Assembly (NCBI GenBank): GCA_965230925.1
Contig: OZ246403.1
Location: 330,455 to 394,454, forward strand
Source: an uncultured Candidatus Saccharibacteria bacterium
GTDB lineage: Bacteria; Patescibacteriota; Minisyncoccia; Phycocordibacterales; JACOZG01
Direction of reading: 5' to 3'
DNA: 64,000 bases
Below are positions 2,766 to 51,526 of this stretch, piece by piece. The notes beneath the pieces were generated by a model. It ran no database searches. It was not told the origin of the DNA and worked only from the letters and a program-made list of their open reading frames with translations. Position 1 is the first letter of the stretch, and every line of letters starts with the position of its first letter. A program made the position numbers and the translations under genes.

Positions 2766-5015
2766 TTAGTTCTGGATCAAGCTAATGGTACTGGTCTTGA
2801 AGTCGCCCATATCGAAACGGTAAACCGTATCGTGGACATCTCCACTATCAGTATCCCAGCTAATACCACGCAAGCGAACACCCATTTGGATGTCTGCGCC
2901 AGCAGGACCAATGTTGATCTTCAGAGTACAACGACGAGTGTCATTCTCTGGGATCTCAAACGACTTGTTCGTAGAACTTGTCGTTACGTCGTTAGCCTCA
3001 ACACCAGCACACTCTAGAACCGTCAATGGCAAACTACCAGTGGTTGTGGTGGCGGTTGAATCGGTTGTAGTACCCCACAAAACACCCGAGTTTGCGGTTT
3101 CAGCTGTTGGTCCCGAAGAGAGAGCGCTAGCGGTAGTAGAAGCCACCACAGCACCGTCGATGAAGACATCATCACCGAATGAAGTAACGTCAAAGACGAT
3201 CTGGTAAATACCAGTGTCATCACCACCAGAGAACCCAGCGGCCTGACCATCAGTGTCGGCATCAGACGAAACGAATTCAACGTTAATACCAATATCATAC
3301 ACAGCATGAGCATCACTAGAAGTGTTGGCACTACCTGTAACACGGGTATCAGACAACACTTCACCAGACTCATCTTCTACGCTCCAACCAGCAGTGTCAT
3401 CGGTCGAATCTTCACTGATAAACACTGCGAGGGTAGCGCCTTCGAGAGCACCGTCGGCCACAGAGTTGAAGCTGACCTTAATCTCAGCGTCCACTTCTTC
3501 ACCAGCAGCCAAGTCGTAATCGATATCATCGAAGAGCCAACCCTTAGTGGTGGTATCGTCAGCGGAGGTAATAGTTTCACCAGTAGCCACTTCTGTACCA
3601 TCAATCCACAAAGTTATATCTTTTATCAGATCATCCACATCATCAACGGCTGTTCCGTTAGCAGCAACCGTGGAGCTAGCAGACATCCGCTCGATCACAA
3701 GATCTGAATCACCTTCCGCCTCAAGAGTGAAGGAAAGAACTGAAACATCATCAGTATCATCAGAGGCATGGATGTCAATAACATGAGGATCATTAATCTC
3801 ATCGTCACCCTCATCAATCTTCAGCTCTGCGTTAGCAGCAGAAGCAAAGGTGCCGAAATTAAACGATCGTGTATCACCAGAACCAATGTCGCCGGTTGAG
3901 GTGTCAGTTACAGAAGCGCCTTGAGCATCCTTAAAGCGAACACTTTCGGCTTGAACCAACCAGATATCATTGTCTTCATCCGAGCTAATGTTGTTAACAG
4001 CTGTAACAGCCACAACGAGCTCAGCATTCTCCTCACCAGCCTGGATTATGGCACCAGAATCGAGGGAAATGGTTCGGTCATAGTTGTTGTCATCATTGAA
4101 CTGATCAGCATCAATGCGGGCAACCTCTTCACCGTTAAACCAAATCGAAACCTCGGTGATGTAATCCTCTAGGTCAGAAGAACCAACACCAGTGCTTGGA
4201 TCGAAATCAAGACGAACTGCGGTAATTTCAAGATCTGACCCTTCGTCAGCATCGAGGTCCAGACCAAAGACTTCTACGTCTTCAGACCCCTCACCAACTT
4301 CTTCGCTGTTCAGGCCTGAAACGAAGTCAGCATCGTCAATCGAACCAGCGCCGCCTGTCAAAGTACCAGGGGTGGTGTTACCACCAGTCGTACCAGAAGG
4401 CATGCAGTTATTTGAGAGCAAATTGCCGTTCGGGCAAGTAGGACCAGAAGAGGAAACTGGCATACAGTTATTGGAGAGCGGATTGCCGTTCGGGCAAAGC
4501 GTTCCAGTACCTGTTGAAGGAGGCATCGTTGTGCCACCGCCAGTTGTTCCGCCAGCCATCGCGCTCAAATTAGCGCGGGTCAGAGGACCGAAGTAACCAG
4601 AAGCCGGGCTAATCCCCGCGCTCGCCTGGTACATCTTCAGAGCCGTTTCGGTCAAAGGACCGAAGGTCATAGTCTCCATACCCATGGAACCAGGGCCGGT
4701 TGCGGCTACTGGGAAGCCATGGCTATTGAGCCAAACCTGAAGACATTTCACATCCTCACCGGTTGAACCGATGGTGAGATCACGAGTAAAGGAGCAGCCG
4801 CCAGTCATTGCCGGCATGCCACCAGTGGTACCGGTACCACCAACCATCTGGAGTAACTGTTGCATCAATGCTGGATTGTTGGACAGAAGATTGAGCAAAG
4901 CAGTTGCATCCGGAACCTGAGCACTGACAGCACCCGGAAGGGTGAAGCCGATGACCAGAGCAAGCATCAGACCAAGAGCCACTTTCGCAGCTGTTTGGTT
5001 AAAGAATTTTATCAT
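2766..5015 (-). CDS. large secreted surface protein with a PG_binding_1-like domain, short Cys tandem repeats and a D/T/S-rich domain
   Basis: Signal peptide is present. Motif GEDVKCLQVWLNSHGFPV...TFGPLTETALKMYQASAGI...GYFGPLTRANL fits the peptidoglycan-binding-domain consensus. LCPNGNPLSNNCMP is repeated twice, followed by about 500 aa of acidic/Thr-rich beta-type sequence. Confidence 0.55.
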   Translation of the reverse strand: MIKFFNQTAAKVALGLMLALVIGFTLPGAVSAQVPDATALLNLLSNNPALMQQLLQMVGGTGTTGGMPAMTGGCSFTRDLTIGSTGEDVKCLQVWLNSHGFPVAATGPGSMGMETMTFGPLTETALKMYQASAGISPASGYFGPLTRANLSAMAGGTTGGGTTMPPSTGTGTLCPNGNPLSNNCMPVSSSGPTCPNGNLLSNNCMPSGTTGGNTTPGTLTGGAGSIDDADFVSGLNSEEVGEGSEDVEVFGLDLDADEGSDLEITAVRLDFDPSTGVGSSDLEDYITEVSIWFNGEEVARIDADQFNDDNNYDRTISLDSGAIIQAGEENAELVVAVTAVNNISSDEDNDIWLVQAESVRFKDAQGASVTDTSTGDIGSGDTRSFNFGTFASAANAELKIDEGDDEINDPHVIDIHASDDTDDVSVLSFTLEAEGDSDLVIERMSASSTVAANGTAVDDVDDLIKDITLWIDGTEVATGETITSADDTTTKGWLFDDIDYDLAAGEEVDAEIKVSFNSVADGALEGATLAVFISEDSTDDTAGWSVEDESGEVLSDTRVTGSANTSSDAHAVYDIGINVEFVSSDADTDGQAAGFSGGDDTGIYQIVFDVTSFGDDVFIDGAVVASTTASALSSGPTAETANSGVLWGTTTDSTATTTTGSLPLTVLECAGVEANDVTTSSTNKSFEIPENDTRRCTLKINIGPAGADIQMGVRLRGISWDTDSGDVHDTVYRFDMGDFKTSTISLIQN

Positions 5016-30743: not shown

Positions 30744-31394
30744 TTACAAGTAATCAAAGAGTTTTAATTGCTCGTTCTTAAGCACGGAGTCAATCACGTT
30801 TTTCACATTCGTTTTCACTGTCTCGACTGGATCATGGCTTGAAATAATTACTTTAGAAAATTCTGGAGGCAAGTTGCGATAGGCATTGCGCACTCGGCGA
30901 TGGAAGTCCACATCTCGCTCGTCAAAGTGATTTTTTCCTTTCTTTCCCCTTTCATTGGTTCGTGCCACGGCAATATGCGGATTAACGTCAAGAATAATGT
31001 AAAGATCGGGCGCCGCAGAACCTAAACACACCTCTCGCATTTGCATAAATAGCGGCTCAAGAGAAAGTCTTTCTTGGCCATAAATTTGGAAGGCATAAGA
31101 AGAAGAGTCGAGGCGGTCAGAAATCACATGCTTTCCTGCTTCCAGCGCTGGACGAATTTTATGCTCAATATGATCAGCTCGCGCGGCCCAAAAGAGACCA
31201 AACTGAGTGAGGCCGGAGGCGTCCTTAGCGTCAGGACTAAGAATTATTTCGCGAATCTTCTCAGCAAAGGGCGAGCCGCCAGGCTCGCGGGTAAACAAAA
31301 AATTCTCGGTATACACCGAGCGCAAATATTCTATAATCGTCGTCTTACCACACCCATCAGCACCGTCAATAACGATAAATTTTCCGCGGCTCAT
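30744..31394 (-). CDS. tmk: thymidylate kinase
   Basis: P-loop IVIDGADGCGKTT and the dTMP kinase lid. Confidence 0.9.
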   Translation of the reverse strand: MSRGKFIVIDGADGCGKTTIIEYLRSVYTENFLFTREPGGSPFAEKIREIILSPDAKDASGLTQFGLFWAARADHIEHKIRPALEAGKHVISDRLDSSSYAFQIYGQERLSLEPLFMQMREVCLGSAAPDLYIILDVNPHIAVARTNERGKKGKNHFDERDVDFHRRVRNAYRNLPPEFSKVIISSHDPVETVKTNVKNVIDSVLKNEQLKLFDYL

Positions 31395-32614
31395 GACCGG
31401 AGAATTTTATCAATTTTCCGGGCGATTGCCACCATGTCCTTTTTCACCTTTCCACGTGTCGTTTCAGCCGGTGTACCAAGCCGAATTCCTGATGGATCCA
31501 CAGCACTGCGAGTATCAAACGGGATCATGTTTTTATTCACAATAATCCCGGCTTTCTCTAGCCGATTACTCGCCTCGGCACCGCCAACCCCTTTGCCTTC
31601 TAGCCAAGTGTCAACAAGAAGCAAATGCGAATCGGTTCCCCCACTCACCAAGCGCCAACCAAGTTTTTGTAGCTCATTCCCGAGCGCCTTTGCGTTCTTC
31701 ACAATCTGCTTGGCGTATTTTTTAAATTCTGGCCGCGCCGCTTCTGCAAGAGCAACAGCGACCCCGGCAATTTGATTCAAATGTGGACCCCCCTGCAAAC
31801 CTGGAAACACAGCTTTATCAATTTTTTTGTCTAATTCTCGTTTATCGTGCCGAGAAAAAATCAGCGCGCTTCTTGGTCCACGAAGAGTTTTGTGCGTGGT
31901 TGTCGTTACCACATCAGCGTACTTGAAAGGGCTCGGGTACACCCCACCAGCAACGAGTCCGGCAAAGTGCGACATATCAACCATCAGCAACGCGTCCACC
32001 GAATCAGCAATGTCTCGAAACTTTTCCCAATCAATAATTCTCGGATAAGCCGTGAAGCCAGCCACAATCACATCGGGCTTATTTTCTCGCGCAATCTTTT
32101 TCAATTCCTCATAATCAAGTGTCTCGGTCTCCTTACTCACCCCATACGGAATTTGTTGAAAAATCTTTCCCGTCATCGACACTTTGTGACCGTGTGTGAG
32201 ATGACCGCCATGATCGAGCGACATACCCATAATCTTGCCGTGCGGTGGCACCATCGCGTAATATACTGCCAAATTCGCCGGCGAACCCGAGAGCGCCTGC
32301 ACATTAACCGCCCATTCGTCAGAATTTAATTTAAAAAGTTTCAGTGCCCGTTTTTGACACAAACGTTCCACTTCATCCACCACCGCATTGCCACCATAAT
32401 AACGCTTGCCCGGATAACCTTCAGCATATTTATTATTCAGTTCCGAACCAAGTGCCGCCAAAACATCTTGAGAAATATAGTTTTCCGAGGGAATCAGATT
32501 AATCACCCGCTTCTGCCGCCCCTTCTCAGCCTTGATGAGTTGCTCGATTTGCTTATCTTTCACGAGCCACAGATTACCAAGTTTCCGCGACAAAAGGAAA
32601 GGCCGGCGGTCCAC
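31391..32614 (-). CDS. glyA: serine hydroxymethyltransferase
   Basis: LIPSENYISQDVLAALGS..NKYAEGYPGKRYYGG and the PLP-lysine region TTTTHKTLRGPR. The likely true start is the GTG at 32563 (MKDKQIEQLIKAE). Confidence 0.9.
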   Translation of the reverse strand: MDRRPFLLSRKLGNLWLVKDKQIEQLIKAEKGRQKRVINLIPSENYISQDVLAALGSELNNKYAEGYPGKRYYGGNAVVDEVERLCQKRALKLFKLNSDEWAVNVQALSGSPANLAVYYAMVPPHGKIMGMSLDHGGHLTHGHKVSMTGKIFQQIPYGVSKETETLDYEELKKIARENKPDVIVAGFTAYPRIIDWEKFRDIADSVDALLMVDMSHFAGLVAGGVYPSPFKYADVVTTTTHKTLRGPRSALIFSRHDKRELDKKIDKAVFPGLQGGPHLNQIAGVAVALAEAARPEFKKYAKQIVKNAKALGNELQKLGWRLVSGGTDSHLLLVDTWLEGKGVGGAEASNRLEKAGIIVNKNMIPFDTRSAVDPSGIRLGTPAETTRGKVKKDMVAIARKIDKILRS

Positions 32615-32650: not shown

Positions 32651-33427
32651 TTATCGAGTTTCCACATCAAGCGTTAATGGACTATACGGACGGCGAGTAT
32701 ACTGTTGTTCTCGGAAAAAGCCACAGTCACACAAGAACTTACTGCACCGCTCGCAATCACCGCCGTAAATCTCGAGCAACGCCTCGCCCAGATTAATACC
32801 GAGCACATTTGCGACACTGAAGGTCCAAGCAAGCACGTCAGACAATTCAAGGGCACACTGCTTTCGTCTTTCTCCGACAGTGATACTGCTATCAGCCATA
32901 GCCGCCCGAATGATCTTGGCCGCTTCCCCAACTTCGGAACTCAGGCGCAAGAGACAAAACTGGATCCCCTGCTGCCGGTTGCTTTCACCGAACATGCGAT
33001 CGAGAAGTTCTTGCCACTGCAAAATCGTCTGACTACCAAATGGGTAAGAACTTGTGTCTTGCCAATCCGTAAGGTAAGCGGGTGATTCAGAAGAACTCCT
33101 CTGAAGTTTACAAGTGCACACCCTTTGACCGCAACCGAAACAGTGATTAGCTCCCCACTTCCTCCACAAAGCATATTCGAGTGGTAAATCGCCTTGATAC
33201 TCTACAAAAGCGACTGTCCAACCGAATACGTTTGCCAACGCCATTTCTGGAGTTCTCTCACCTCTCTGTCTGACCACTGACTCAAAAAGTTGATTCGCCG
33301 TTGCATCAATAAGATGCAGGCAAAGATCAGACACTGAAGGAATACAAAACCGATTAGCGATCCCGTATTTAAGACGAAATCGCTCTATCCAACCAGAGAG
33401 AGTTATGTCCGACGCTATTGTTGTCAC
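32651..33427 (-). CDS. fusion protein: unknown N-terminal domain + Cys4 zinc ribbon + MazG-like all-alpha NTP pyrophosphohydrolase
   Basis: CFGCGQRVCTC...CERCSKFLCDC form a Zn-ribbon. SSEVGEAAKIIRA...ALELSDVLAWTFSVANVLGINLGEALLEIY carries the MazG/HisE-like EExxE/D signature. GTG start. Confidence 0.45.
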   Translation of the reverse strand: MTTIASDITLSGWIERFRLKYGIANRFCIPSVSDLCLHLIDATANQLFESVVRQRGERTPEMALANVFGWTVAFVEYQGDLPLEYALWRKWGANHCFGCGQRVCTCKLQRSSSESPAYLTDWQDTSSYPFGSQTILQWQELLDRMFGESNRQQGIQFCLLRLSSEVGEAAKIIRAAMADSSITVGERRKQCALELSDVLAWTFSVANVLGINLGEALLEIYGGDCERCSKFLCDCGFFREQQYTRRPYSPLTLDVETR

Positions 33428-33500
33428 GCTTTATCTCCTCAAAGAACAATCTGTTCGTTTTGTCCAATTACACCAGCTTCCACCCTAACGCCGGGGCGGG

Positions 33501-33506
33501 TATAAT
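33501..33506 (+). promoter_or_regulatory. -10 element TATAAT overlapping the first ATG of the ThyX-like gene (leaderless-type)
   Basis: GGGTATAATGcaagccgaaATG has the same layout as the efp promoter: an ATG embedded in the -10 and a second ATG about 12 nt downstream. Confidence 0.4.
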
Positions 33507-33516
33507 GCAAGCCGAA

Positions 33517-34806
33517 ATGAAAATCATTGTTGTGGATGATGTGGCGCCGGAGGCGAATGCGATGTTGCAGGCGCTGTATTCCCGGAGTCCAAAAAGTGTG
33601 GTCGAGCACCTCGAGCAGGTGAAGAAAGTGGGCGCCGAGAAATTCATGGCCTCGTATTATGTGGGCTATGGCCACAAGTCGATTGGCGACTGCGGTACAA
33701 CAAGTCTGTTTATCGAAAATGTGAGCATGCTCGCGGCCAAAGCCGTGCAAGATTGGCCACTTTATAGCGGCCAAGAAGCGAGCACCCGCTACCTCGACAT
33801 GGCCGCGCAAGTGGTACTTGATCCGCTGGGTACACCGGAATCAAAGGCGATTCAAGATGAATGGATGAAATTTTATGCTCACGCTCTAGAAACTCTCGCA
33901 CCCGCATTGCAGGTGCGCTTCCCTCGCGCCGATGATCAAGATGAGAGGGTGTATCTGAAGGCGATCAAAGCGCGCGCCTTCGACATTGCCCGTGGCTTCT
34001 TACCCGCTGGCGTGACCACCTATGTGAGCTGGCACACCAATCTCCGCCAAGCGAGCGATCATCTCAAAGAACTCCGTCATCACCCTCTCCCCGAGATCCG
34101 CGAAGTGGCCAAAGAAATTGCCGGGGCCCTGCGAACTAAATACGCTTCGAGCTTTCTCCATAAAGAATATGAAACGGAAGAAAATTATCTAGAACAAAGT
34201 TTGAAGGAATTTGCCTACTTCAACGATCCAAGTATCAAAAACTTTTCTTACCAAGTGCGACTCGACTTAGAAGGCTTGAAGAAACACCAAAAGCTTTTAG
34301 AAACTCGCCCAGCCAAGACCGAACTTCACTCGCGCTTCCGCGAGTTTGGCGATATTCTCTTCCGCTTCCCGCTCGACTTTGGCTCCTATCGCGATCTCCA
34401 ACGACAGCGCAGCGCCGTGCAAGAGATGCCGCTACTCACCACCGCGCACGGCTTTCACTCTTGGTACTTAGAGCAACTCCCGGCTGATTTAAAAACTGAG
34501 GCTTTAGCGGTATTAAAAAATCAAGAAGCCAAACTAGAGAAACTCAAAACTTCGCCAGAAATTAAACAGTACTATACCGCGATGGGTTACCTCGTGACCG
34601 TGCAAATGAGTTGCCCTCTACCTTCTGCCGTTTATATCGCCGAGCTCCGTAGCGCCGACACCGTTCATCCTACGCTCCGCATTGAAGCACAACGCATGGG
34701 TGATGCAATCAAAGCAAGCGTCCCCGGCATTACGATGCATCATGACACCACCCCAGGCTCTTGGAATATTAAGCGCGGCGCCCAAGATATTGTGAAAGTG
34801 AATTAA
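33517..34806 (+). CDS. divergent tandem-domain Thy1 (flavin-dependent thymidylate synthase ThyX-like) protein
   Basis: The first Thy1 repeat (GYGHKSIGDCGTTSLFIENVSMLAAKAVQDWPLYSGQEASTRY, then TNLRQASDHLKELR...EIREVA) has SML in place of SRA and QDW in place of RHR. The C-terminal half looks like a second repeat (SYRDLQRQRSAVQ). The ORF track begins at 33418. Confidence 0.55.
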   Translation: MKIIVVDDVAPEANAMLQALYSRSPKSVVEHLEQVKKVGAEKFMASYYVGYGHKSIGDCGTTSLFIENVSMLAAKAVQDWPLYSGQEASTRYLDMAAQVVLDPLGTPESKAIQDEWMKFYAHALETLAPALQVRFPRADDQDERVYLKAIKARAFDIARGFLPAGVTTYVSWHTNLRQASDHLKELRHHPLPEIREVAKEIAGALRTKYASSFLHKEYETEENYLEQSLKEFAYFNDPSIKNFSYQVRLDLEGLKKHQKLLETRPAKTELHSRFREFGDILFRFPLDFGSYRDLQRQRSAVQEMPLLTTAHGFHSWYLEQLPADLKTEALAVLKNQEAKLEKLKTSPEIKQYYTAMGYLVTVQMSCPLPSAVYIAELRSADTVHPTLRIEAQRMGDAIKASVPGITMHHDTTPGSWNIKRGAQDIVKVN

Positions 34807-36467: not shown

Positions 36468-37067
36468 CTACGCAGCCGCTACAGCTCTTGTTCTTCGTCC
36501 CTTCTGCGGCGACGGTGCGGCAGGAACAGGTAGCTGCAAACTCATTGCCCTAGCAAGTTCAGCAAGCTCGTTGCCGGCCGACCCCCAAGTCATCGCGGTG
36601 AACTTTGAGGGCAAGCGGTCGATCACTTCTGCGGGCGGTGAAATCGAATCGTGCACCCACATCAGTAACACAGGAAAATTGCGTCCCCGCGTTTGCTCTG
36701 CCAACCACGTCAAGTAAGCCTTAGCGTCGGCTGGGTCTGGTGGTAAATAGCCTATCACTGCCCCGACCTCATCTAGGCGCGAAGCGAACATCTCAGTTCT
36801 GATGTCCGACACACGAACGGTCGGAAAAAAGACCTGTTCCGAGCCTTCCAGCCTCGCCTTGAGAGTTGAGGCAACATTTATCGCTTTTGCCCTCACTTCC
36901 CTGTCCAATCCGTCACCATCCTTGAGAGTGCCTCCCTTGATTTCCTGCGTACTCAAGGGACCAATCTGCATGACCTTGACCATGGTCATAACCTCCGTGT
37001 TTCCTAAAAAGTGTGGATGCGTAGTGGCTCCCGAGACCGAGCGGTCCCAACAAATGTAAAGAGCCAT
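36468..37067 (-). CDS. hypothetical alpha/beta protein occupying the position expected for rplA
   Basis: Probable start is the internal MVKVMQIGPLS. No L1 similarity. Visibly higher GC than the neighbouring genes. A TIR-like/SLOG-like fold is a guess only. Confidence 0.35.
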   Translation of the reverse strand: MALYICWDRSVSGATTHPHFLGNTEVMTMVKVMQIGPLSTQEIKGGTLKDGDGLDREVRAKAINVASTLKARLEGSEQVFFPTVRVSDIRTEMFASRLDEVGAVIGYLPPDPADAKAYLTWLAEQTRGRNFPVLLMWVHDSISPPAEVIDRLPSKFTAMTWGSAGNELAELARAMSLQLPVPAAPSPQKGRRTRAVAAA

Positions 37068-50714: not shown

Positions 50715-51038
50715 TTAATACCGATCTTTGTCGCGGGAAGAGACTTTGTCTAAACTTTTGCGAATAGCACGATCGAGGTCGAGGTTCTGAGAATTCGCGA
50801 GAGAAATGAGCGTATAGAGAATGTCTCCCACCTCGTCCTCCAGATCTTGCTCGACCTCGGTACTCTTTTTCTTCTTCGGGCCAAATTGATGATTCACCAG
50901 CCGCGCCAGTTCCCCCGCTTCTTCCATCAGGCGAACCAAAATTTCATGCGGCGTCCAATAAGCCCAACCTTTCTCCTTAAACCACCGCGCCATTTCTTCT
51001 TGATACTGCTTCATGATTTTTTCGGTTGTTGTTGCCAC
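50715..51038 (-). CDS. MazG-like nucleotide pyrophosphohydrolase (single-domain)
   Basis: EEAGELARLV...EVGDILYTLISLANSQNLDLDRAIRKSLDK. Confidence 0.7.
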   Translation of the reverse strand: MATTTEKIMKQYQEEMARWFKEKGWAYWTPHEILVRLMEEAGELARLVNHQFGPKKKKSTEVEQDLEDEVGDILYTLISLANSQNLDLDRAIRKSLDKVSSRDKDRY

Positions 51039-51526
51039 CGTTCTAAAATACTCGACTCGTCAATATCCGTACGACCAAACTTTTTAGCCTGTTCTTTCAT
51101 CCGCGGGATCAGAAATTCCGGCGTTTGCCACTCAATCGTACTTTTGTTTTCAATATCTTCATTTCCCCTTCTCGCAAGATCTTGATCAAGTAAGCGCACG
51201 AGAAAGTAGAGCGTGGTCTTCTCTATCTCCACATTGCGATGTTTGAAGTGACTTTGAATTGAGCCAAGATAATCAACAATTTCTCCCGTCGCCCCAAACT
51301 CTTCTTGCAAACCTCGATGAAGCGTGGCCTCCAAACTCTCTCCCGGCTCTACCGTCTCGCGCATCAAGATAAAAAAATCATCAATTCCCTCCTCGGACCA
51401 ATAACCCTTAAGATCCTTGGTAAGAAAATGATGCGCGCACACTTCCCCATTCTTGTTCACCAACACCGCCCCCACCGACACATGCTGCGGGTGTAAATAA
51501 TTCCCTTGAAAATAGGTTGGTTTCAT
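51011..51526 (-). CDS. NUDIX hydrolase
   Basis: Nudix box RETVEPGESLEATLHRGLQEEFGA. Confidence 0.75.
   Translation of the reverse strand: MKPTYFQGNYLHPQHVSVGAVLVNKNGEVCAHHFLTKDLKGYWSEEGIDDFFILMRETVEPGESLEATLHRGLQEEFGATGEIVDYLGSIQSHFKHRNVEIEKTTLYFLVRLLDQDLARRGNEDIENKSTIEWQTPEFLIPRMKEQAKKFGRTDIDESSILERWQQQPKKS

Follow-up and report, generated by a model that had tools for sequence, protein, structure and literature searches.

A long ThyX protein with its catalytic residues divided between two fused domains, probably a thymidylate synthase, and its tandem MazG-like neighbour in a Candidatus Saccharibacteria contig

The window analysed here is a stretch of 64,000 nucleotides from an uncultured Candidatus Saccharibacteria bacterium (contig OZ246403.1, positions 330,455 to 394,454), and it carries a gene for a long ThyX-like protein of 433 amino acids beside a divergently oriented gene for a MazG-like protein. 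As judged from its sequence, the 433-aa protein is probably a working flavin-dependent thymidylate synthase (ThyX/FDTS) in the form of a fused pseudo-heterodimer, with its active sites split between two ThyX domains. The function in thymidine monophosphate (dTMP) synthesis would be ordinary and is already annotated by homology; what appears to be new is the architecture, in which the three-subunit site is partitioned between two specialised domains.

The division of residues was analysed in 175 distinct long ThyX sequences (48-100% identity), which were drawn from the listed homologues and 80 metagenome loci and were dominated by the Candidate Phyla Radiation (CPR). In the N-terminal half, H57, S59, S93, R95, Y96, D160, R163 and R181 were present in 175/175 sequences, and the positions that replace the RHR of the ThyX motif were variable (D in 160, W in 140 and P in 132 sequences), with RHR in none. 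In the C-terminal half, R296, R300 and R302 were found in 175/175 sequences and R382 and H388 in 174/174; residue 301 was Gln in 93 and His in 82 of the 175, and therefore nearly half of the family has a literal RHR in this half. The Ser/Arg loop positions of the C-half were canonical in none of the homologues. This pattern of invariance indicates that each catalytic residue is strictly constrained in exactly one half. Sequence comparison also showed that all residues contacting flavin adenine dinucleotide (FAD) and deoxyuridine monophosphate (dUMP) are present and invariant once both halves are pooled. With RHR and the uracil-binding Arg confined to the C-half, and the Ser/Arg/Tyr loop confined to the N-half, a pair of chains can have no more than two complete sites out of four.

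The homology of the N-half to ThyX was established by its match to Pfam Thy1 (PF02511; 57.7 bits, cut-off 24.8). An earlier note, made from the letters alone, had described a protein of 462 amino acids in which the first Thy1 repeat had lost RHR. All of the strings that it quoted are present in the open reading frame (ORF) 33418-34806 (+), but the length of 462 aa corresponds to an over-extended maximal ORF beginning at TTG 33418 and overlapping the start of the neighbouring gene. The start at ATG 33505 is backed by database gene calls and by the lengths of at least 120 homologues listed (388-508 aa, nearly all 425-442 aa). In the alignment, an alternative start at ATG 33517 ('MKIIVVDD', 429 aa) suits many homologues equally well. 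The loss of RHR from the first repeat was borne out; the replacing residues are D83-W84-P85, one residue off the 'QDW' first proposed, and the catalytic Ser/Arg/Tyr loop (S93/R95/Y96) is intact. Global hhalign placed H53/T55 of Thermotoga maritima ThyX at H57/S59, R78-H79-R80 at D83-W84-P85, E86/S88/R90/Y91 at E91/S93/R95/Y96, E144/R147 at D160/R163 and N163/R165 at N179/R181. This alignment, for which the T. maritima sequence was checked against PDB 1KQ4, was of low confidence (Prob 0.8%, E 0.032) and was consistent with a manual motif alignment, so that it served for residue numbering and the homology itself rests on the Pfam match. PDB sequence searches with the whole protein, the N-half profile and the C-half profile found no ThyX.

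Two observations on the start region are recorded here: a perfect TATAAT at 33501-33506 overlaps the annotated ATG 33505, and the second in-frame ATG 33517 fits the N-terminus of many homologues ('MKIIIVDD'). Together they would allow for a transcript with a very short leader, or none, that starts at the second ATG.

The C-half had no Pfam match and no PDB sequence match, so the separate profile searches of the two halves proposed in the earlier note were positive for the first half only. By structure prediction, the C-half is nevertheless a ThyX-fold domain. In the full-length AlphaFold model (pLDDT 89.6, pTM 0.89), strands and helices follow one another in the same sequence in the two halves, and the model matched Mycobacterium tuberculosis ThyX (E 9e-5). 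When the C-half was modelled by itself (pLDDT 88.7), Foldseek returned 121 PDB matches at E<=1e-3, and the best 50 of these 121 were all ThyX or the ThyX-fold methylase PolB, with TM-scores of about 0.5-0.6. A transitive Pfam link was given by the phage protein Tunturi_5 gp50 (518 aa), in which Pfam Thy1 matches two stretches: the C-half by itself scored 48.4 bits and aligned with the C-half of the window protein (BLASTP 3e-8). The profile-profile comparison of N-half with C-half was insignificant with 21-22 sequences and also with 195 sequences including phages, and thus the duplication is backed by structure and by the transitive Pfam link rather than by direct sequence similarity. Since hhalign failed to align the C-half with T. 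maritima ThyX, its residue equivalences rest on an alignment of motifs and secondary structure. In this alignment R296 corresponds to R74 of T. maritima ThyX, R300-Q301-R302 to R78-H79-R80, R382 to R174 and H388 to H178, while L310/T312 occupy the Ser88/Arg90 positions and equivalents of R147 and R165 are lacking. The second, C-terminal Thy1-like repeat with an R-Q-R triad predicted earlier is thereby supported, with 'SYRDLQRQRS' as the equivalent of the RHR motif.

The split can be compared with the organisation of canonical ThyX, which reviews describe as a homotetramer. Its active site lies at a three-subunit interface, where Ser88/Tyr91 are catalytically critical (PMC11940539, PMC5954106). 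Subunit A provides the RHR that contacts the phosphates, ribityl and isoalloxazine of FAD, and the first Arg of RHR together with Arg199 of M. tuberculosis (R174 of T. maritima) contacts dUMP; subunit C gives Ser105/Arg107/Tyr108 of M. tuberculosis (S88/R90/Y91 of T. maritima), and subunit B gives Ser71 and Arg190 of M. tuberculosis, which bind the FAD phosphates (PMC6514825). In the model proposed for the long protein, an ancient duplication would have joined two ThyX domains, each of which would then have lost complementary parts of the active site. The C-half would be an 'A-only' subunit (R296, R300-Q/H-R302, R382, H388) and the N-half a 'B + C' subunit, with E91, S93, R95, Y96 and R163 in the C-role and S59 and R181 in the B-role. 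In a D2 tetramer ABCD, site A would use A, B and C, and site D would use D, C and B; with C-halves as A and D and N-halves as B and C, sites A and D would be complete and sites B and C dead. Two fused chains would then form a pseudo-tetramer around one true two-fold axis, with two FAD/dUMP sites and one FAD per chain. We infer from this scheme a dimer of fusions that mimics the ThyX tetramer and has two of its four sites active.

The quaternary arrangement could also be a different one. If the fused chain were a stand-alone pseudo-dimer with one site per monomer, or a non-canonical assembly, it would still be a thymidylate synthase and 'two of four sites' would be wrong. The confident modelling of the full-length monomer as one compact unit (pTM 0.89) is compatible with such an arrangement, as is the loss of R181 in phage BONAISHI, which suggests that the third-subunit contribution may be dispensable. 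The presence of S59 and R181 in every sequence of the CPR-dominated set argues for a third-subunit role, and the canonical site does lie at a three-subunit interface (PMC5954106, PMC6514825). A stand-alone form or other non-canonical assembly is regarded as rather unlikely.

Several points weigh against the proposed enzyme. The RHRxxxxxxxS(xR) motif is complete in neither half and exists only split across both, and the NCBIfam ThyX equivalog model TIGR02170 gave 21.5 bits, far under its cut-off of 87.9. The R174 region is ambiguous in the N-half alignment, where either E189 or R191 could be the equivalent. The orientation of the C-half RQR/R382 towards S93/R95/Y96 of the N-half, like the dimerisation of two chains, would follow by homology reasoning. 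The equivalent of R181, the B-role Arg, is lost in BONAISHI, and so this part of the model may not be essential. Biochemical data were found for no member of the long ThyX family, and a thyA gene may be present elsewhere in the 716-kb genome.

Part of these points would also fit a catalytically dead ThyX paralogue, acting as a regulator or a nucleotide-binding protein, with dTMP supplied by salvage or by a thyA located elsewhere. A split motif and a score below the TIGR02170 cut-off would be expected of such a protein; in addition, CPR bacteria lean heavily on salvage, and thyA acquired by horizontal gene transfer has been reported in some Patescibacteria (PMC12455944). A dead protein is, however, difficult to reconcile with catalytic residues that are each invariant in one half or the other at 48-100% identity, with the true RHR of about half of the family, and with a conserved linkage to tmk, glyA, dut and dcd. 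The search for thyA and for a canonical or second thyX, which the earlier note had suggested, found none in the 64-kb window and none in any thyX flank. Loss of catalysis is accordingly held to be extremely improbable.

Genomic context analyses revealed that the long thyX lies within a block of pyrimidine-deoxynucleotide genes, namely tmk, glyA, the mazG-like gene, thyX, dut and dcd, followed by the genes of ribosomal protein L11 and NusG (Table 1). In five loci that were inspected singly, the long thyX adjoins tmk in all, glyA in 3/5, and dut, dcd or dCMP deaminase in 4/5. The counts for the 33 loci with flanks of 3 kb or more on each side were 25 for tmk, 19 for serine hydroxymethyltransferase (SHMT), 15 for dut, 14 for dCMP deaminase and 11 for dCTP deaminase (DCD). 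This is the neighbourhood expected of a cell's thymidylate synthase. The adjacent dcd and dut products would supply dUMP, the adjacent glyA product would supply methylenetetrahydrofolate (CH2-THF), and dTMP would be passed to the product of the adjacent tmk; the route would run from dCTP through dUTP, dUMP and dTMP to dTDP, with SHMT recharging the folate. Between the two functions that the earlier note had left open, the complementary split of invariant residues and the conserved dTMP-pathway neighbourhood favour a pseudo-dimeric ThyX with fewer sites that supplies dTMP.

Table 1. Features of the thyX-mazG locus and of related loci and proteins (positions in the window unless another locus is named).
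Feature	Position or size	Strand	Evidence and remarks
tmk (thymidylate kinase)	30744..31394	-	PF02223 129.1 bits; 4-nt overlap with glyA
glyA (SHMT; regenerates CH2-THF)	31391..32614	-	PF00464 546.9 bits
Tandem MazG-like gene, 258 aa, GTG start	32651..33427	-	ORF list; family of at least 500 representatives
MazG repeat 2, residues 134-238, predicted catalytic unit	32714..33028	-	PF03819 22.9 bits on the C-half alone
MazG Cys cluster 2 (C225, C228, C233, C235)	32723-32755	-	CxxCx4CxC
MazG repeat 2 metal ligands, E194-x-x-D197	32837-32848	-	Invariant in the family alignment, missing from repeat 1
MazG repeat 2 metal ligands, E165-x-x-E168	32924-32935	-	Invariant in the family alignment, missing from repeat 1
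MazG repeat 1, residues 8-108, degenerate	33104..33406	-	Without ExxE/ExxD; Cys cluster 1 (C96, C99, C104, C106) at nt 33110-33142
Spacer between the divergent mazG-like and thyX starts, 77 bp	33428..33504	.	
Long (tandem) ThyX gene, 433 aa + stop	33505..34806	+	Gene call in public assemblies, homologue lengths, alignment
N-half ThyX domain, residues 1-221	33505..34167	+	PF02511; keeps H57/S59, E91, S93-T94-R95-Y96, D160/R163, N179/R181; without RHR
D83-W84-P85, at T. maritima ThyX R78-H79-R80 positions	33751..33759	+	Never RHR in 175 homologues
S93-T94-R95-Y96, equivalent of the catalytic Ser88/Arg90/Tyr91 loop	33781..33792	+	Invariant; roles from PMC11940539, PMC6514825
C-half ThyX-fold domain (predicted), residues 222-433	34168..34803	+	AlphaFold/Foldseek, transitive Pfam link; keeps R296, R300-Q301-R302, R382, H388
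R300-Q301-R302, equivalent of RHR (ThyX motif)	34402..34410	+	Both Arg 175/175; middle Q in 93, H in 82
R382, assigned counterpart of R174 in T. maritima and R199 in M. tuberculosis, the Arg that binds uracil from the subunit that also gives RHR	34648..34650	+	174/174; manual motif alignment 'AELRS..HP' vs 'LNLRADSH'
dut (trimeric-type dUTPase), 140 aa	34808..35230	-	PF00692 99.7 bits; TIGR00576 125.8 bits
Long two-domain dCTP deaminase (DCD_N + DCD_C), 371 aa	35227..36342	-	PF06559, PF22569, PF22769 (2 stretches); PRK07559 267 bits; 4-nt overlap with dut
ORF of about 200 aa in the L11-side slot	36468-37067	-	Pairwise identity among the three loci only 24-28%, homology uncertain
Same slot, L002	6955-7545	-	
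Same slot, L012	2928-3548	+	
Distant tandem-MazG members	L011 605-1333; L014 5001-5735; L015 3667-4401		Near PurM-like AIRS, SAICAR synthase, FGAR amidotransferase, dihydroorotate dehydrogenase
Vibrio phage BONAISHI ORF269	480 aa		Tandem, same motif split
Tunturiibacter phage Tunturi_5 gp50	518 aa		Tandem, same motif split; adjoins dCMP deaminase

The other function considered was that the long ThyX makes a modified pyrimidine or methylates another substrate (UMP, dCMP), and that together with MazG it forms a nucleotide-modification or nucleotide-exclusion pathway of the kind seen in some phages. Enzymes of the ThyX fold that act on other substrates do exist, PolB being among the fold matches, a MazG-like gene is adjacent, and the same tandem occurs in jumbo phages, where MazG-like and TS-like (thymidylate synthase-like) enzymes can serve DNA modification (PMC7824862). 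The neighbours dcd, dut, glyA and tmk form, on the other hand, the exact dTMP route, and likewise across the 33 loci; no modification genes of the glycosyl-, amino-acyl- or kinase-type are adjacent, and every dUMP-contacting residue of canonical ThyX is retained. Furthermore, the authors of the BONAISHI study found no DNA-modification genes (PMC6207643), and most long-thyX loci are without MazG. The hypermodification pathway suggested earlier thus found no support in the gene neighbourhood, and a modified-pyrimidine function is considered very unlikely.

With regard to the divergent gene, its presence beside the thyX-like ORF was verified, and its product proved to differ from the domain order first proposed. 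Instead of an N-terminal domain of unknown type followed by one Cys4 zinc ribbon and a MazG-like domain, the protein consists of two units, each MazG-like and each followed by CxxCx4CxC, with two Cys4 clusters. Comparison of repeat 1 with repeat 2 by hhalign indicated an internal duplication (prob 99.6%, E 8.6e-24), and the family alignment gave for each repeat the pattern '…W…YG..NR…L.RL…A.ELAD.LAW…AN.L.IDLE.A…YG..C..C….C.C', with the eight Cys conserved across the family. This sequence evidence identifies the supposed N-terminal domain as a degenerate MazG unit, and the protein would be a fused pseudo-dimer of two all-alpha units, each capped by a probable zinc knuckle, and would have one site per chain for the conversion of (d)NTP to (d)NMP + PPi, since only the second unit keeps ExxE…ExxD. 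A fused pseudo-dimer with one catalytic unit is a form in which the MazG-like protein parallels the ThyX next door. The dCTP deaminase, with its two Pfam DCD stretches, was also observed to be internally duplicated, so that it, ThyX and the MazG-like protein are all fused forms of normally homo-oligomeric enzymes.

The assignment to the MazG group was made with profiles. The family profile matched PDB 1vmg (SSO3215) at 8e-16, and also iMazG, YpjD and DCTPP1. Pfam MazG (PF03819) was matched by 9/39 members of the tandem family, and a member from Ardenticatenaceae (Chloroflexi) reached 60.7 bits with two Pfam MazG stretches. A full HMMER search gave at least 500 representatives (clusters at 50% identity), mostly of 220-270 aa among those listed; a word-indexed homologue search with the MazG-like protein returned only itself, the same search with a profile returned 4 proteins, and a profile search of genome contigs with an alignment of the family (A5) returned 2 loci only. 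No model of NCBIfam, for MazG or any other family, matched the window protein or any of the 39 family members. Two further points count against the role proposed for this protein: the whole sequence scored 21.2 bits against the PF03819 cut-off of 22, with a borderline 22.9 bits for its C-half alone, and the sequence allows no deduction of the substrate. Going by gene context, the enzyme would most probably act on a pyrimidine dNTP (dUTP or dCTP) of the pathway served by ThyX. The window also has, at 50718-51059 (-), a further MazG-like gene of 114 aa with a single domain, with 50.7 bits to PF03819 and E 9e-10 to the hidden Markov model of the tandem family; the genome therefore has at least two pyrophosphohydrolases of MazG type.

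The association of the tandem mazG with thyX, taken from the earlier note, proved to be real in a subset of loci and not general. The two genes adjoin in four distinct loci (the window, L009, L010 and L012; 33-45% identity) and in two orientations, and the three nearest relatives with a retrievable context (P0122, P0123 and P0125; 33-45% identity) each lie directly downstream of a long thyX. One of these loci (L012) has the order thyX-mazG-glyA-tmk-dut-argS, which is the gene set of the window with thyX in the other orientation. Against a general partnership, none of the 80 metagenome long-thyX loci (0/80) has the tandem mazG beside thyX, and consequently the link appears confined to a sub-lineage. 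DCD was present in 3/3 assessable MazG-bearing loci compared to 10/32 of the others (Fisher p = 0.044, small sample) and dCMP deaminase in none of the 3; a mutual exclusion of MazG and dCMP deaminase was not significant (p = 0.20). Distant members of the tandem-MazG family adjoin genes of purine or pyrimidine biosynthesis, which suggests that the family is tied generally to nucleotide synthesis; others lie in unrelated contexts. A broader proposal is that the fused ThyX is an obligately asymmetric flavoenzyme whose 'dead' sites are repurposed, for example for NADPH, folate or an allosteric nucleotide, so that it would be a natural half-of-the-sites FDTS whose domains divide the labour, and that the tandem Cys4-MazG is a dedicated partner setting the dUTP/dCTP flux where a lineage relies on dCTP deaminase; this is considered unlikely. 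In L010, a NUDIX hydrolase (4350-4778, +) was observed directly after thyX and the tandem MazG, with the two pyrophosphohydrolase types side by side. A 249-aa gene upstream of thyX in L005 was examined as a relative of MazG and rejected, as no relationship was found.

The long ThyX is not an oddity of this genome, as the word 'unusual' in the earlier note had implied. The family comprises more than 4,205 clusters at 90% identity, mostly of Paceibacteria, in which it is the standard form in thousands of sequences; the names Paceibacterota, Parcubacteria or Taylorbacteria are given to the best homologues, which places the window in a CPR/Patescibacteria genome, and family members are labelled FAD-dependent thymidylate synthase/ThyX by PGAP and JGI. 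The tandem and the split of the motif also occur in the jumbo phages BONAISHI and Tunturi_5, where the N-half has '...STRY' without RHR and the C-half has 'RHR' without the Ser/Arg loop. A Parcubacteria protein was given as the best match of ORF269 in the BONAISHI paper (PMC6207643). In the vB_VmeM-Yong phages, a tblastn match covered 95% of the query, a similarity at the level of length only; a 461-aa viral protein (TM 0.79) and the thymidylate synthase of Microcystis phage Ma-LMM01 (491 aa, TM 0.61) were similar only as whole structures. In the literature, no description of a tandem or duplicated ThyX or of a split motif was found.

Two kinds of locus bear on the phage distribution. In L005 (1-11284), all genes share a single strand, and a long ThyX of 427 aa lies amid a PDDEXK nuclease, a DEAD/ResIII helicase, tmk and numerous small genes without annotation, which looks like a phage or mobile-element context unlike the usual chromosomal block. 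Several IMG/VR 'viral' contigs with a long thyX (L097, L098 and L099; 80-210 kb) have the same sizes and ranges as metagenome contigs found independently (L063, L074 and L083); these contigs could be either huge phages or fragments of CPR genomes that were classified as viral.

Further analyses of the window showed a G+C content of about 48%, and negative GC skew in 30/32 two-kb windows, with a cumulative skew that declines almost steadily over 1-64000. No tRNA genes, and no riboswitch or other Rfam family at the gathering threshold, were found in the 64 kb. The shared promoter that had been assigned to the divergent genes was not confirmed: the divergent region held 3 promoter-like matches compared to 2.4 expected from shuffled sequence, no signal above chance. 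In three loci, the slot that separates the L11 gene from the deaminase gene or thyX is occupied by an ORF of about 200 aa without a Pfam match.

ThyX is of interest both as a target for antibacterials and for its puzzling mechanism. Since three identical subunits contribute to its active site, any mutation affects all roles at once; if the proposed architecture is correct, the fusion would let the role of RHR and the uracil-binding Arg be mutated separately from that of the Ser/Arg/Tyr loop and the FAD-phosphate contacts, and it would mean that half of the sites suffice in vivo. The Paceibacteria, a very large group of uncultured bacteria, appear to have this protein as their usual thymidylate synthase, and jumbo phages share it, a distribution that is relevant to the exchange of genes between CPR bacteria and phages. 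The results also concern annotation, since long ThyX proteins escape the curated equivalog model and only one of their two domains is seen by Pfam. For the tandem Cys4-MazG family (at least 500 clusters), NCBIfam offers no curated model and the Pfam MazG matches are weak and partial; the family is repeatedly linked to nucleotide-synthesis genes. What appears to be new is thus a fused ThyX architecture that is ancient and widespread, accompanied in a few lineages by an uncharacterised tandem Cys4-MazG.

In comparison with known systems, the window ThyX shares with the canonical homotetrameric ThyX/FDTS (T. maritima TM0449, 1O26; M. tuberculosis, 2AF6/3GWC) the fold in both halves, the same overall set of FAD and dUMP residues and the pathway context (SHMT, tmk), and differs in having two diverged domains per chain, with the equivalents of R147 and R165 in the N-half only. 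The UMP/dUMP methylase PolB (PDB 4P5A) shares the ThyX fold and the flavin/folate chemistry, but is a single-domain homo-oligomer in the secondary-metabolite context of polyoxin, without a dTMP gene cluster. The long ThyX-like proteins of jumbo phages and cyanophages show 22-33% identity with the window protein and have extra insertions; their annotation goes no further than 'thymidylate synthase(-like)' or hypothetical, and that of BONAISHI is without an R181 equivalent. Chlamydia ThyX (CT632), of about 530 aa, is likewise long and is the sole thymidylate synthase of a reduced genome; work cited in PMC3498832 reports it to be enzymatically active.

For the MazG-like protein, the relatives are the small all-alpha enzymes SSO3215 (1VMG), iMazG (2Q5Z/2Q73), YpjD (2GTA) and DCTPP1/RS21-C6 (2OIE/6SQW), which are homologous to repeat 2 (profile E 8e-16 to 0.01). 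These enzymes have about 95-170 aa and work as homo-oligomers, whereas the window protein fuses two units, the first of them without metal ligands, and its CxxCx4CxC knuckle lies outside the alignment to the solved relatives, whose matches stop before it. MazG of the Escherichia coli type, with about 263 aa, has two tandem MazG domains, one of which is enough for activity; it appears to resemble the window protein in length and in its tandem domains of unequal catalytic weight. The Cys4 knuckles are specific to the family described here.

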